From Patescibacteria group bacterium (GTDB taxonomy: Bacteria; Patescibacteriota; Microgenomatia; UBA8517), in contig JADFPI010000003.1 of the NCBI GenBank assembly GCA_022562395.1, forward strand, positions 1-53,336: DNA of 53,336 bases, read 5' to 3'. Every line of letters starts with the position of its first letter. Within the stretch, counting starts at the first letter, position 1. Shown in pieces: positions 5,091-9,429 of this stretch. The translations under genes and the position numbers were made by a program. Below the pieces are notes generated by a model. It ran no database searches. It worked only from the letters and a program-made list of their open reading frames with translations, and was not told the origin of the DNA.

Positions 5091-6068
5091 CTAGCAGCCT
5101 TCGTATGTTCCCCCGCAGGAGTGACATCTGTAACCTGCTGATATGACTGAGTTTATTGGAGTTCCGCAGTTTCCGCAGCTTACAACGTGTTTTGCAGATT
5201 CAGAACTAATTATGGCTTGGGCAAAAGTCTTATCAAAAATACCCAAGTTTGCATCTTGTAGACTTTTTAAGGCTTCCTGATTGGAAATTCCACAACTTCC
5301 ACTTGCTTGGAGAAGTATTCCGGAGGCTGCTAATTCGGCCTCCATCATTGCGCCGGCCGTCATATAATCGTAAGCCCTCTCCGCTGCCAGAATTAGATTG
5401 TAATATTTTTCAACTACCGGTTTTGCTAAGCGCTTCATTTCCTCTTTTGCCCTAATATCGTCTGCCCCCCTTACTTTTTCCCAAATTTTTGGCTCGTCAA
5501 TTAGTCCTTCGAGATATTCAAACCAAGTTAAACTTTCAGGAGGGTTGAAAAAGACAGGGGAAGCCCTAAGTTTATTGGAAGAGCCAACCTCGGCAAAATT
5601 TTTGTCTGAAGTGCTAGCTATTTCTTTGGCAAGATTTGCACATTCACTTTCAGAATAAGGCAGGCAGAAGGCTCGATATAGTACTTCTGTGTTGCCGTTG
5701 TCACCTTTTGTTTCATAAACCATTAGGCGGGCTTCCGAGTAGCCAAACTCGCTGCTCGGTGGACTTATCCAGGCTAAATTTTTGGATTGCTTCTCTCTCG
5801 CCCAGCGCTCGATAATCAGAAAACCGTGGTTTTCTAAATAATCCGACTTGGTATCCCAACGCAGCTTAACTTTATTTCCCAAAGTATCGTAAAGATGCCC
5901 ATCTTCGTTAAGATAAAGAACTCCTGTGTTTATTCTTTCTTCCGGCGGAGACTCTCTTTGCTCAATTGAAGCAGCGGCAAAATCCTCAACGGTTCTTTCT
6001 ATTGCCTCGCCAATTAATTCATCTTCTTTGGGAAGCCAGTTTCTTGTATCTAGTGCAAGTCTTTCCAT
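5091..6068 (-). CDS. Hypothetical protein with C-terminal Zn-ribbon (CxxC...CxxC), riboswitch-preceded
   Basis: 325-aa ORF with AGGAG SD; SCGNC...RCHSCGGTYEGC. Confidence 0.75.
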   Translation of the reverse strand: MERLALDTRNWLPKEDELIGEAIERTVEDFAAASIEQRESPPEERINTGVLYLNEDGHLYDTLGNKVKLRWDTKSDYLENHGFLIIERWAREKQSKNLAWISPPSSEFGYSEARLMVYETKGDNGNTEVLYRAFCLPYSESECANLAKEIASTSDKNFAEVGSSNKLRASPVFFNPPESLTWFEYLEGLIDEPKIWEKVRGADDIRAKEEMKRLAKPVVEKYYNLILAAERAYDYMTAGAMMEAELAASGILLQASGSCGISNQEALKSLQDANLGIFDKTFAQAIISSESAKHVVSCGNCGTPINSVISAGYRCHSCGGTYEGC

Positions 6069-6109
6069 TTTTCTCCTGCTCGGAATATCCCGCCTAAGGC
6101 GGGAAGAGA

Positions 6110-6290
6110 TTGCTAGTTTTCTGGCTTCCGTCCTTCGCGTAAAGCTTCGGAACGGTTACAGTTGCGGCACAGCTGGGGATTTACACCCCATTCCTTTACC
6201 CCAAGAGAGATAGCTAAAGCATCTCACGGGGTAGCCCGTTTGATACTTGCTAAAGCAAGTTATCTAACCGGGCAACACAATCTCTAGCAA
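6110..6290 (-). ncRNA. Cobalamin (B12) riboswitch
   Basis: Minus strand: P1 TTGCTAG/CTAGCAA, AAAGGAATGGGGTGTAAATCCCCAGCTGTGCCGCAACTGTAA and B12-box GGAAGCCAGAAAAC. Confidence 0.85.
6197..6273. repeat. REP-like palindrome doublet, copy 1 (inside the riboswitch)
   Basis: TACCCCAAGAGAGAT..ATCTCACGGGGTA + GCCCGTTTGAT..ATCTAACCGGGC; inverted homologue of 6706-6779. Confidence 0.85.
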
Positions 6291-6367
6291 GATTATTGAC
6301 TAGATTTTCAAATATTTCAAGACTCGTCTGGCGAGTCAAGTAGCGTTTTATGATATTATGAACTAAA

Positions 6368-6436
6368 GTGGCAAGCGGGATAGCTGCATCAATTGCTTAT
6401 TTTGTTGGATTTTTGCTTGGGAAGTATGTGGTTTAG
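6368..6436 (+). pseudogene. Possible C-terminal remnant of a membrane protein (VIT1/CCC1-like end)
   Basis: VASGIAASIAYFVGFLLGKYVV*, with no upstream gene body. Confidence 0.3.
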
Positions 6437-6454
6437 CCCCGCACCAATTTTGCT

Positions 6455-6715
6455 ATGTATTATGTATATGTTTTACAAAGCAGGAAGGATAAAGGGCTAT
6501 ATACAGGTTACACGGATGACTTGGAAAAAAGATTAAAAAAGCATAAACAAGGTTTGGTCATATCGACAAGAAGTAGAAAACCTTTAAACATTATTTATTA
6601 TGAGGCTTGTTTAAATAAAAGGGATGCACTTCATCGCGAGAAGTATTTAAAAACGGCTTGGGGCAAGAAATTTATTAAAAATAGATTGAGGAATTACTTA
6701 AGAGGTCCCAGTTAG
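6455..6715 (+). CDS. Stand-alone GIY-YIG nuclease
   Basis: YYVYVL...LYTGYT.DL..RL..H...YYEA...A..RE..LK. Confidence 0.9.
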   Translation: MYYVYVLQSRKDKGLYTGYTDDLEKRLKKHKQGLVISTRSRKPLNIIYYEACLNKRDALHREKYLKTAWGKKFIKNRLRNYLRGPS

Positions 6716-6779
6716 ATAGTCCCTTTGGGACATCAAACGGGATCCCGTGAGATGCTCTAGAAGAGCTATTTCACTGGGA
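6706..6779. repeat. REP-like palindrome doublet, copy 2 (contains the GIY-YIG stop codon)
   Basis: TCCCAGTTAGAT..ATCAAACGGGA + TCCCGTGAGAT..ATTTCACTGGGA. Confidence 0.85.
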
Positions 6780-6792
6780 GGAGGTGAATGAA

Positions 6793-6969
6793 ATGAAGAA
6801 AAAGGACATAAGGACTCTTTCTCAAGTTCTAATAGGGGGTGCTGTTATTTCTGTGCTTTTGTCAGGGATTGGCTACACGGGGGCAGACATCTGGCTTGCT
6901 TCAACCCAATGGCTTTTGGTAGCGGCCGTTTTGGCATTATTTGGGGTGTACACCAGGCTTGAGTCGTAA
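6793..6969 (+). CDS. Small two-TM membrane protein
   Basis: GGAGGAGGTG SD; hydrophobic ORF. Confidence 0.65.
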   Translation: MKKKDIRTLSQVLIGGAVISVLLSGIGYTGADIWLASTQWLLVAAVLALFGVYTRLES

Positions 6970-6974
6970 GCGGG

Positions 6975-7006
6975 GCGGAAAATACGCGGAAAATACGCGG
7001 AAAATA
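6975..7006 (+). repeat. Tandem 11-mer GCGGAAAATAC x~3
   Basis: Read directly from the sequence. Confidence 0.8.
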
Positions 7007-7013
7007 AGGAAAC

Positions 7014-7042
7014 TTGACACATAGTATGGTATCTGTTAACCT
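7014..7042 (+). promoter_or_regulatory. Sigma70 promoter, leaderless configuration
   Basis: TTGACA-17 bp-TAACCT (with TG extension), 6 nt before ATG 7049. Confidence 0.6.
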
Positions 7043-7048
7043 GGCGCA

Positions 7049-7525
7049 ATGAAAAGAAGAGATATAGTAATAGGCCTCATTGTATTGGCCGTGCTTGCAG
7101 GAATTATTTTTCTAGCCAGAAGACAAAGGGAGCAACCTGAACTTCAGACAACTCCATCAGTTGAAGAAAGACTGGAAGAATCTTTTAACTTAGAGATTCC
7201 AGAAGACGTTGAAAAGATAGAACTTGCTGATGTATCAGGCGGTGATTCTTCGGGTATCGCAACTAGAAAGTTTGAAGATGCAACATTTACACACGTAGTA
7301 TTAGCCGACCTTCCAGAACCGGAGGAAGGTAAATTTTATGAGGGCTGGTTAGTCAAGGGAGAGGAAGTTGTTTCGACAGGAAGACTTAGAGTTGCCAAGG
7401 GCGGTTATCTTTTAGAATTTGAATCCTCAACCGATTATTCTGACTACAAAACTGTGGTAGTTTCAGAAGAAGAGGTAGCTGACGCTACTCCAGAAAAACA
7501 TATATTAGAAGGCTCCTTCGAATAA
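7049..7525 (+). CDS. Membrane-anchored protein with anti-sigma-K (RskA C-terminal)-like domain
   Basis: N-terminal TM; LPEPEEGKFYEGWLV...VVVSEE...PEKHILEG. Confidence 0.6.
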   Translation: MKRRDIVIGLIVLAVLAGIIFLARRQREQPELQTTPSVEERLEESFNLEIPEDVEKIELADVSGGDSSGIATRKFEDATFTHVVLADLPEPEEGKFYEGWLVKGEEVVSTGRLRVAKGGYLLEFESSTDYSDYKTVVVSEEEVADATPEKHILEGSFE

Positions 7526-7570
7526 TTCTTGCCACTTCATTTAAGATCTGCTCTGGGTTAAGATTTTACT

Positions 7571-8311
7571 ATGAGTTTTCTTAAGGTTTTTGCTTCTTTT
7601 ATCCTTGCTTTTTTGTTTTTATCGCTGGCAAGCGACAAAGCTTTGGCTTCACTTGTCGTGGTCCAAAAAGATGGCAAGGTTGTCTTAAATGTTTTATCAA
7701 TCGAAAATACTGTTGAGCTTGAAATTCCAAGAAGAGATTATTTAGAGATTAAAAATATAGCTCAAGAGATTCCTGACCCGGGCTCTAAAATTTCATTAAC
7801 CAGAAAAGACGGCAGAGTTACGCTGAATGTTTCTACAAAAAGCGGGGAAAAAAGTTTGGATGTTACAAACTATAAAGATGAAATTGTCGAGATTGAAGAA
7901 AGACCGGCCCTTGAAACAGTGAAGATAGGGGTTTCTGATAATCAATTTACCATCGAGCAAAGGGGAGTAGTTGCCAGGACCGATTACGAGATAAATATTG
8001 ACCCGGAGAGTGCCGGAATTACTTTGACAACTCCTTCCGGTCTTAGATTTTTATCGATCTTGCCTTATGAGGCAGTTGAAACGGCCTTGCGAGCCAAGAT
8101 AATAAATAGACTTACAAACCAGAATAACGTGGCAATAATAGAGGAAGGAAGAGAATTATCTTACGAGTTAGCTGGAGAGCGAGTTCTTAACTTTTTCGAT
8201 GTATTTAAATACCCAGTGCCGGTTAAAACCAAGATTTCGGCTTCAACCGGCGAAGTTTTATCTATCGAGCAACCTACTTGGCTAAGAATTCTAGGCTTCC
8301 TGTTTGTCTAA
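7571..8311 (+). CDS. Exported hypothetical protein
   Basis: Signal peptide ending ALA; C-terminal ISASTGEVL...W motif. Confidence 0.7.
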   Translation: MSFLKVFASFILAFLFLSLASDKALASLVVVQKDGKVVLNVLSIENTVELEIPRRDYLEIKNIAQEIPDPGSKISLTRKDGRVTLNVSTKSGEKSLDVTNYKDEIVEIEERPALETVKIGVSDNQFTIEQRGVVARTDYEINIDPESAGITLTTPSGLRFLSILPYEAVETALRAKIINRLTNQNNVAIIEEGRELSYELAGERVLNFFDVFKYPVPVKTKISASTGEVLSIEQPTWLRILGFLFV

Positions 8312-8347
8312 TTGGTTACTCCGTAGGAGCGCTGTGCTTGACCCCCT

Positions 8348-8378
8348 TGATATACTGAATATACCCCCAGGGGGTATA
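8348..8378 (+). promoter_or_regulatory. Extended -10 (TGATATACT) followed by a CsoR/RcnR-type operator
   Basis: Palindrome TATACCCCC-A-GGGGGTATA (8360-8378) directly before the CsoR-family ATG; C/G tracts flanked by AT are typical of this family's operators. Confidence 0.8.
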
Positions 8379-8379
8379 C

Positions 8380-8616
8380 ATGCAAGACCCTGTTATTTCT
8401 CGCCTTCACAGGATAAAAGGACAAATCGAGGCAGTCGAGAGGATGTACAAAGCTCGAAAGGCCTGTATTGAAGTAGTACGACAGGTTCAAGCGGCAAGAG
8501 CCGCGCTAGGTAGACTTGCGGGCATACTATTAACTGACGAAGCAAAGCGCTGTGTAGATGCTGGAGATTTGAAAGAATTAGAAAAGATTGTCAATAAAAC
8601 TTTTAAAATAGTTTAA
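8380..8616 (+). CDS. CsoR/RcnR family transcriptional repressor
   Basis: RLHRIKGQIEAVERM...C.EVV.QV.AARAAL...C. Confidence 0.9.
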   Translation: MQDPVISRLHRIKGQIEAVERMYKARKACIEVVRQVQAARAALGRLAGILLTDEAKRCVDAGDLKELEKIVNKTFKIV

Positions 8617-8621
8617 GAAAG

Positions 8622-9362
8622 ATGTTTGACATCAATTTTCCAGTTGCATTCGGCGCAGGAGTAGTTTCTTTCTTTGCCCCTTGCGTTGTCCCGCTTTTGC
8701 CGGCTTATGTAGGTTATGTTACTGGAGTTTCTGCAAAAGACTTGAAGGCTTCTAATTTCGGTAAATACAGAACCCAACTTATTGTTTCAAGCCTCTTTTA
8801 TATCATCGGGTTTTCAATTATCTTTGTTATCTTGGGAACTGCAGCAGCCGGCTTGGGACAATCACTGCGCCAATTTGACAACATAATTCGAATTGCAGGA
8901 GGAGCGTTAATTCTTGTGCTCGGCCTTAATTTTGCCGGCTTTTTGCCGATACCTGCACTAGCGAAGGAACGCAAATTTAAAGTACCAACGTGGGTCAATA
9001 AACTTGGGTATGGCCGTGCTTTTTTAGTGGGCGTCGTTTTTGCCGTTGCCTGGACGCCTTGCGTCGGAGCAGTTTTGGGTTCAATTTTGGCCCTGGCAGC
9101 GATTTCGGGAACAGCAACAACCGGAGCGTCTCTGCTTTTGGTTTATTCGCTTGGCATATCCATCCCTTTTATGCTCGTTTCCTTAACCCTTGCCCAGGCT
9201 CCCAAATACATTCCCGCCATCTCCCGTTATATCGGCCCAATATCAAAAATTGCCGGACTAATTCTTGCCGCCTTAGGGCTTTTGCTCTTGACCAACACAT
9301 ACCGTTTTGTCAACGCTTGGCTTTTTGAGATTGCATTTAGCCTGGGATATCAGATAAAGTAA
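8622..9362 (+). CDS. ccdA: CcdA/DsbD-TM thiol-disulfide transporter
   Basis: SFFAPCVVPLLPAY and AWTPCVGAVL. Confidence 0.9.
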   Translation: MFDINFPVAFGAGVVSFFAPCVVPLLPAYVGYVTGVSAKDLKASNFGKYRTQLIVSSLFYIIGFSIIFVILGTAAAGLGQSLRQFDNIIRIAGGALILVLGLNFAGFLPIPALAKERKFKVPTWVNKLGYGRAFLVGVVFAVAWTPCVGAVLGSILALAAISGTATTGASLLLVYSLGISIPFMLVSLTLAQAPKYIPAISRYIGPISKIAGLILAALGLLLLTNTYRFVNAWLFEIAFSLGYQIK

Positions 9363-9365
9363 ATA

Positions 9366-9429
9366 GCCACAGTTAGATAGTTTGTACATCTAACGTGGCC
9401 CCGTGAGATCTGAAAGTATCTCACTGGGG
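9366..9429. repeat. REP-like palindrome doublet, copy 3 (intergenic, no nuclease)
   Basis: GCCACAGTTAGAT..ATCTAACGTGGC + CCCGTGAGAT..ATCTCACTGGGG. Confidence 0.8.

Follow-up and report, generated by a model that had tools for sequence, protein, structure and literature searches.

What do short paired palindromes have to do with the minimal nuclease gene that lies among them? The question is raised by a stretch of 53,336 nucleotides (the window) that constitutes contig C31 (JADFPI010000003.1) of a Patescibacteria group bacterium, whose genome, G000 (GCA_022562395.1), comprises 922,835 bp in 52 contigs with 41.6% G+C. The window carries three copies of a pair of hairpins, hereafter a doublet, and one of these copies closes a gene coding for an 86-aa GIY-YIG nuclease. 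Repetitive extragenic palindromic (REP) sequences and their doublets (REPINs) normally flank, and are spread by, HUH transposases of the REP-associated tyrosine transposase (RAYT) type, and a preliminary description of the window proposed that the GIY-YIG gene takes the place of the RAYT in an analogous selfish system. The analysis presented here indicates that the doublets are probably gene-less copies of a small hairpin DNA element paired with a minimal (about 85 aa) GIY-YIG nuclease resembling the Ssn proteins (see following).

The three two-hairpin doublets initially described are confirmed at 6197–6273 (copy 1, minus strand), 6706–6779 (copy 2, plus strand), and 9366–9429 (copy 3, plus strand). 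The consensus of the hairpin unit used for the search, CCCGT(G/T)(A/T)GAT-variable hairpin-AT(C/T)T(C/A)AC(T/C)GGG, matches four units of the window, at 6235–6272 (+), 6707–6741 (−), 6744–6778 (+), and 9400–9428 (+), when the chance expectation is of 0 in 100 dinucleotide shuffles. The two remaining units, 6201–6230 (−) in copy 1 and 9368–9397 in copy 3, are each 2 substitutions away from the consensus. A looser search, allowing 2 substitutions per arm, is uninformative by itself (44 matches vs 31–39 in shuffles), as only the paired sites are real. We built from the doublets of G000 a covariance model, R1, with 63 positions and 23 pairs, which scores the window sites at 66.9 (copy 1), 69.6 (copy 2), and 73.4 bits (copy 3). 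Counted genome-wide with R1, as the preliminary description had advised, full sites amount to seven in the whole of G000 (0.92 Mb), 3 of them in the window. An eighth and weak site (contig C18, 19.6 bits) was left uncounted because it is located within a group I intron (RF00028, 75.7 bits). This intron, at C18:19229–19486 (locus L003:191–448, minus strand), holds one hairpin with a stem sequence identical to that of the doublet units, and its ORF-poor surroundings (ORF, open reading frame) may be rRNA. The doublets themselves match no Rfam family, either at the gathering score or at E values up to 1.

Every doublet folds into two separate hairpins, with z-scores between −3.0 and −4.6 for 8 sequences, the rejected C18 site included. 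If one reads toward the downstream gene, the first hairpin has two single-base bulges on its 5′ side and usually a TTAGAT/ATCTAA stem, and the second has two single-base bulges on its 3′ side and usually a GTGAGAT/ATCTCAC stem. The inner stems had been described as variable in sequence yet paired, and this holds across G000 and its relatives: inner sequences are distinct in 131 of 141 units, and their pairing averages 2.7 bp, vs 1.1 bp after shuffling, under a crude slicing of the units.

The nuclease gene (6455–6715, plus strand) codes for a single-domain protein that matches PF01541 with 57.2 bits over residues 1–68 of its 86. Residues Y5, Y16, G18, R26, H30, and E62 are invariant in an alignment of 13 sequences that includes one Ssn-type protein flanked by SRM repeats. 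The best match by sequence among solved structures is the UPF0213 protein PDB 1zg2 (E = 4.9e-8). UPF0213 and YhbQ-like proteins (PDB 1zg2 and 1ywl) share with the window protein the single GIY-YIG domain and a similar size, but the match covers residues 2–67 only, and they are not known to be accompanied by hairpin repeats. A search of NCBIfam with the window protein gave nothing useful, a group I intron endonuclease reaching 18 bits vs a cut-off of 56. Copy 2 does provide the stop of the gene, as was initially noticed, since the TAG of ORF 6455–6715 lies inside the first hairpin of the doublet; at its other end the doublet abuts the ribosome-binding site of an ORF coding for a 61-aa membrane protein. 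There are four PF01541 loci in G000, and doublets are found near the window copy only. Two other small GIY-YIG genes, C17:3629–3829 (L007) and C37:4478–4689 (L008), lie between tRNA genes and lack hairpin units; the C37 copy is broken across two reading frames.

The association between gene and doublet was surveyed in 61 genomes, G000 and 60 relatives. R1 matches are present in 19 of them, namely G000, 15 of the 36 others of the same family, and three from two sister families (2 of 11 and 1 of 3, respectively), with about 1 to 15 sites per doublet-bearing genome; the 10 genomes from other families of the same class have no R1 match. Among 15 loci of window-protein homologues examined in these relatives, 8 have an R1 doublet downstream of the gene. 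It abuts the gene end in G050 (66% identity), G023 (67%), G048 (66%), G029:C84 (63%), and G018:C11 (60%), lies 7 nt past the gene in G027:C12 (59%, partial match), and is farther downstream in G018:C6 (43 nt; 56%) and G029:C41 (143 nt; 48%). Upstream of the gene there is a second doublet in G050 and a single unit in G048. More distant homologues, in G045, G041, and G031, are nested in one inverted repeat of 11–13 nt with the same core, and at the G005 locus only the left arm of this core is clear, at the gene start. Neither doublet nor arms were found at three of the 15 loci (G018:C10, G029:C88, and G023:C12).

In an alignment of the eight loci with doublets, homology sets in close to the ATG, spans the ORF and the doublet, and stops at the ribosome-binding site, and the neighboring genes differ; the closest homologues with the same doublet at the gene end occupy at least six different gene neighborhoods. 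The stop codon is a TAG inside the first hairpin at four of the eight loci, and therefore the gene–doublet junction itself is inherited. Enrichment of doublets beside GIY-YIG genes, which had been set as a check, is also found: in five genomes with 53 doublets altogether, 5 are no farther than 200 nt from a small GIY-YIG gene, vs about 0.35 expected (Poisson, 3e-5). Of the 10 genomes that have a close homologue, 8 carry doublets, compared with 11 of the 51 others (Fisher, 8e-4, for relatives that are not independent). The link between the doublets and the 86-aa GIY-YIG gene is real, and both linkage and enrichment associate the doublets with a single clade of minimal GIY-YIG genes instead of with a RAYT.

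A scan for homologues using one genome per species gave 346 relatives, of which the best 80 (55%–70% identity) were kept. According to the record labels, these come from groups of the candidate phyla radiation (CPR), Ignavibacteria, Bacteroidota, Verrucomicrobia, Anaerolineales, δ-proteobacteria, and others, and they include one isolate, Niabella drilacis. Within this best-scoring set, the gene lies between two inverted arms in 65 of the 76 loci with enough flank. The left arm (of the type TTCACCCCGT(G/T)AGATA) is found 15–45 nt upstream of the ATG, and the right arm covers the final codons, stop included. An inverted repeat of at least 12 nt is present in 66 of 79 loci, and its cores are fully complementary in 52 of these 66, with 14 different core variants; therefore, arms lying about 300 nt apart covary. 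The core of the arms, CCCGT(G/T)AGAT / ATCT(C/A)ACGGG, is the core of the hairpin stem. To judge by sequence, the hairpin stems of the window are the same arms, minus the gene. A full R1 doublet follows the gene directly at only 4 of the 80 loci, at least one of which (L087) is probably the same record as G050:C25.

Gene and doublet also come and go together among closely related strains. The comparison used metagenome contigs of runs X1, X2, X6, and X9, the aligned pieces of X2, X6, and X9 carrying 2–8 differing letters each. Run X1 carries a module of 408 nt (6369–6776, plus strand) made up of a leader of 86 nt, the GIY-YIG gene, and doublet 2 less its last two G's. The contigs of X2, X6, and X9, which come from near-identical strains in three studies, omit exactly 6369–6776; 40 unrelated letters stand in place of the module, and the match resumes at the ribosome-binding site of the following gene. 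Since the module is absent as one unit, the gene and its 3′ doublet are gained or lost together. The point at which the match resumes places the ribosome-binding site outside the module and, as these strains keep this site, implies that doublet 2 is dispensable for the start signals of the downstream gene. At the module boundary, a host GG completes the last stem of doublet 2. The module-less contigs all keep doublet 1; doublet 3 is present in X2 and X9, and the contigs of X6 break inside it. Gaps in contig cover (about 7424–7931 in X1, with depth under 1 or zero, and 6408–6661 in X2 and X6) were not interpreted beyond the bridged joint.

The module-less strains bear on a first alternative, in which the hairpins were host repeats from the start and serve as landing pads for the GIY-YIG gene, a free-standing gene of the homing type that copies itself into or beside them. 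The position of the gene is compatible with this, as in most loci it lies within the hairpin loop with both arms intact, and in the clade of the window it occupies a fixed position just 5′ of the doublet; moreover, a number of old doublet sites, with no gene, are shared between genera. However, the strains without the gene at 6369–6776 are also without the doublet, so that no empty hairpin remains there. Copies that bear the gene interrupt YhcG PDDEXK nuclease genes of other phyla between profile positions 94 and 95, at 91, and at 78 (L148, L152, L160, L119, L136, L151, and L157), and they also interrupt tyrosine-recombinase (integrase) genes at several points (L116, L132, L102, L112, L114, L127, L145, and L155). 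These copies bring their own arms, and the uninterrupted profile has no hairpin. A Pfam check of six loci (L116, L132, and L102; L148, L152, and L119) found the host profile continuous across the insertion, with no host sequence lost; the other interrupted loci were read by eye. Finally, known homing GIY-YIG enzymes (I-TevI, Seg type) use a separate DNA-binding domain, in a layout of about 200–250 aa, but the 86-aa ORF is wholly catalytic domain. Homing onto older host hairpins is thus an unlikely account of the data. Integron attC core sites were also considered, since GTTRRRY/RYYYAAC is matched by one of the arm variants and integrase genes hold several of the copies with the gene. The likeness was rejected on inspection, since the two boxes are in reverse order relative to attC and the commonest variant does not fit.

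Copy 3 is solitary in the ccdA–tlpA operon, as initially described. It is gene-less, begins 3 nt past the ccdA stop, and fills the spacer between both genes, its last hairpin leading directly into the ribosome-binding site. A search for an empty orthologous site, also suggested at the outset, was successful in G050, where the two genes overlap and no doublet separates ccdA from tlpA. The spacer past ccdA in G046 (L174) has no doublet either; it resembles the last ~25 nt of doublet 3 followed by the ribosome-binding site of the window, and it also contains a short direct repeat. This spacer could be, from its sequence, the remnant of a lost doublet.

Copy 1 occupies the leader of another gene. 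The sole Rfam match in the window is a cobalamin riboswitch aptamer (6094–6233, minus strand; RF00174, 37.8 bits vs a gathering score of 31.5), located upstream of a 325-aa ORF (5091–6068, minus strand). In the Rfam alignment, the 5′ part of the riboswitch overlaps the hairpin unit 6201–6230, which is positioned where stem P2 belongs. The same layout, with a conserved upstream motif followed by the doublet and then by the aptamer core, recurs in G050, G011, G033, and G021, and is therefore found in five genera of two families (loci L018, L019, L064, and L068, and 6094–6300 of the window). A predicted closing helix of 4 pairs, 2 of them covarying, surrounds doublet and aptamer, with the doublet placed between the 5′ strand of the helix and the core. 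This has consequences for the suggestion that copies 1 and 2 are the inverted ends of one element, which finds no support: copy 1 is part of a conserved riboswitch, lies on the opposite strand, and persists in strains without the gene and copy 2. As it is inside a conserved riboswitch leader, the inverted flanking is an accident of neighborhood. Copy 1 does not belong to the GIY-YIG gene and is an old, fixed copy inside the riboswitch.

The catalogue of doublets comprises 78 sites, seven from G000 and some of them weak. A start codon of an ORF of at least 40 aa lies within 40 nt of one end in 56 of the 78. Under a stricter rule, requiring a ribosome-binding motif and a start, 41 of the 78 have a gene start adjoining one end and not the other, and for 36 of these 41 (some of R1's own training sites included) the adjoining end is the one with the GTGAGAT hairpin. 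Among the genes downstream, rpsU recurs in three genera and an 84-aa gene that follows ruvC in five, to which one can add rplB, rplN, tsf, and rpoA by reading of the N-termini. One could regard the doublets as cis-acting RNA elements of 5′ leaders or operon spacers, such as stabilizers or insulators, with the proximity to GIY-YIG genes being secondary. The tight and oriented placement, the conserved sites before rpsU, before the 84-aa gene, and in the cobalamin riboswitch, and the stems at shared sites that vary between genera but stay paired would all be in line with such a role. Yet hairpin stability does not depend on the strand: of 41 sites, 18 fold better as the sense strand, 21 as the antisense strand, and 2 equally well as either. 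G-U pairs are few on both (27 vs 31 of about 1070 pairs). Stability on both strands together with rare G-U pairs fits a DNA palindrome better than an RNA selected on one strand. This alternative is also at odds with the lack of a matching Rfam family for the doublets, with the 42 of 61 genomes that have no R1 match, with the strains that keep the same ribosome-binding site and gene without doublet 2, and with the same stem sequence bracketing the nuclease gene across phyla. As a primary explanation, we consider a host RNA element quite improbable.

A third alternative is that the doublets are ordinary REPINs, moved by the Y1 (RAYT-like) transposase of the genome. The resemblance lies in the head-to-head hairpin pairs, and transposases are at hand: G000 has a Y1_Tnp-like gene on contig C11 (PF01797, 23.8 bits), and Y1 genes are common among the relatives (42 of 61 genomes). 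Nevertheless, the C11 gene is flanked by a different direct repeat of 55 nt, unique to its two sides, and among the Y1 genes listed in the 61 genomes none lies beside a doublet, the nearest being about 1.7 kb off (G033). Nor does the presence of Y1 track that of doublets, as it is found in 14 of 19 genomes with doublets vs 28 of 42 without. A RAYT flanked by the same repeats, which the preliminary description had named as evidence against a GIY-YIG system, was looked for among these listed Y1 genes of the 61 genomes and none was found. The likelihood that these are RAYT-driven REPINs is therefore very small. The C11 locus (C11:1479–2354; L006) codes for a 239-aa Y1/RAYT-like ORF, and within its bracketing 55-nt repeat one finds a TTGACA box as well as a short palindrome. 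As for REPIN–RAYT systems and REP-based bacterial interspersed mosaic elements in general, the doublets share with them the short imperfect palindromes, an asymmetry that gives orientation, the inverted pairs, the single associated nuclease gene beside copies, and the long persistence at some sites. They differ by having a GIY-YIG enzyme instead of a HUH Y1 transposase and by their low copy number.

GIY-YIG nucleases with flanking hairpin repeats have already been published, so the system is not unprecedented, contrary to what had been supposed. Chenal et al. (Nat Commun 2025, PMC11893778) describe Ssn as single-domain GIY-YIG proteins of about 94 aa (CDD cd10448) that cut single-stranded DNA beside hairpin repeats (NTS/SRM) flanking their own gene. 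The cleavage is site-specific, and neither double-stranded DNA nor RNA is a substrate. In their account, 71% of the Ssn homologues have at least one flanking repeat and 42% have repeats on both sides, the NTS/SRM repeats attain up to hundreds of copies, and the arrangement NTS-ssnA-NTS is likened to insertion sequences and to REP/RAYT. Like Ssn, the window protein consists of a lone GIY-YIG domain, is roughly 90 aa long, and has the same catalytic residues (Tyr, Tyr, Arg, His, Glu), and in both systems hairpin repeats of 20–50 nt flank the gene and recur at other places in the genome, frequently in inverted pairs. In our data such flanking repeats correspond to doublet 2 at the stop, to the doublets at 8 of the 15 loci in relatives, and to the arms at 65 of 76 loci. 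As a control, we took the Ssn locus of an Azospirillum lipoferum plasmid, between sufB and sufC, one of the 29 seed genomes of PMC11893778. It has an inverted hairpin pair on either side of the gene and 4 matches to the SRM motif; it was also among the only 9, distant, matches of a tblastn search against plasmids. The systems differ in that the C-terminal third of the window protein is unlike that of the SRM-flanked control, that there are 7 copies per genome here vs hundreds, and that most homologues here lie inside one split hairpin instead of between complete hairpins. CPR bacteria are not mentioned in the text of PMC11893778 nor in 12 of 14 supplementary files searched, and a limited literature search found nothing on this hairpin or protein clade in CPR bacteria. 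Elements of the IS200/IS605 type, discussed in part in the same paper, resemble the module in their hairpin ends and in the lack of a visible target duplication; with the host GG that completes the last stem of the module, one can also conceive of insertion beside a fixed short sequence. The module differs from them in having neither a Y1 nor a TnpB gene, its cargo being the 86-aa GIY-YIG protein.

These elements suggest the following scenario. The commonest form of the element across phyla is a nuclease gene in the loop of one long hairpin, and in this CPR family the arms also exist without the gene, as hairpins of 30–35 nt with two conserved one-base bulges, mostly head to head. By analogy with Ssn, the window protein would cleave single strands: it may recognize the folded hairpin in single-stranded DNA, during replication, repair, or DNA uptake, and nick beside it. 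This activity would be tied to the movement or the upkeep of the gene-plus-hairpin module, and the nuclease, rather than host recombination, would move or seed the hairpins. Some old gene-less copies have apparently been absorbed into host transcripts, at the P2 position of the riboswitch and in spacers before ribosome-binding sites. From the nuclease-plus-palindrome system on a minimal GIY-YIG protein that was initially put forward, one can thus retain the linkage, but not copies 1 and 2 as the ends of an element, nor the lack of precedent, nor the spread of the hairpins by the nuclease, a claim that no result presented here supports.

Several observations weigh against the doublets being gene-less copies of an element paired with an Ssn-like nuclease. 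Some concern the kinship with Ssn. The window protein shares 32% identity over 66 residues only with the SRM-flanked protein of A. lipoferum. In N. drilacis, which is cd10448-positive in Supplementary Data 4 of PMC11893778, the A. lipoferum protein matches paralogue L167 over its full length (7.6e-20), whereas it matches L166, the paralogue of the window family, over the core only (2.7e-9). The published SRM motif matches none of the three doublets, and its 3 matches in G000 compare with 1–4 in 10 shuffles. Since the catalytic residues are shared but identity is low, the other paralogue is preferred, and the SRM motif is absent from the doublets, the window protein appears from its sequence to belong to a sister clade of Ssn and not to cd10448 proper. 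Other observations concern the dependence of the doublets on the gene. About 70 of the 78 catalogued sites have no adjacent GIY-YIG gene; G033 holds about 10 doublets but just a 42%-identical homologue; and G005 and G045 carry close homologues yet no R1 match. In five other gene-carrying genomes, gene-less hairpins are missing from two large ones and restricted to the contig of the gene in three; therefore, the gene does not always generate repeats. Together with the few doublets in the wider set of loci, this makes the dispersed gene-less doublets look like a specialty of this CPR family. In the strain comparison at 6369–6776, no target duplication is seen, and the module lacks a clear hairpin on its left side, where what may be the relic of a unit (about 6379–6396) was noticed by eye only and gets no R1 support at E 0.01. 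Lastly, the tight placement before ribosome-binding sites (41/78), the orientation bias (36/41), and the conservation before rpsU, before the 84-aa gene, and in the riboswitch could each mean host function and not mobility.

An alternative, which we advance tentatively and regard as rather doubtful, is that of a distinct and hitherto undescribed family of minimal autonomous mobile elements. Each would be a DNA hairpin of ~300 bp with a loop encoding its own 85-aa GIY-YIG single-strand nuclease; it would insert precisely into genes and spacers in many phyla, and in one CPR family it would have shed gene-less pairs of 30-nt hairpins, some of them adopted by the host as a riboswitch stem or as spacers before ribosome-binding sites.

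Two further features of the window were noticed. Directly upstream of a 78-aa ORF (8380–8616) there is a G+C-rich palindrome of 17 nt (window 8330–8380). We take this ORF to resemble a metal repressor of the CsoR/RcnR type. It is followed by ccdA, tlpA, a cupredoxin-like ORF, and a glutaredoxin-like ORF, and because a putative repressor precedes these genes, the whole is probably a metal/thiol-redox cluster. An 11-nt unit is repeated three times in tandem (window 6970–7010) after the 61-aa ORF and ahead of the TTGACA box that precedes ORF 7049–7525.

If the window protein cuts single-stranded DNA at its own hairpin, it would provide a second clade, with a new recognition sequence, for the only known family of site-specific single-strand DNA nucleases, enzymes that are of practical interest as tools. 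The presence or absence of gene and hairpin at the strain level offers a concrete and testable case of movement, a question raised in PMC11893778. Cleavage of its own hairpin by the window protein would also mean that nuclease–hairpin pairs shape the very small genomes of CPR bacteria, in their operons, ahead of their ribosomal-protein genes, and in a riboswitch.

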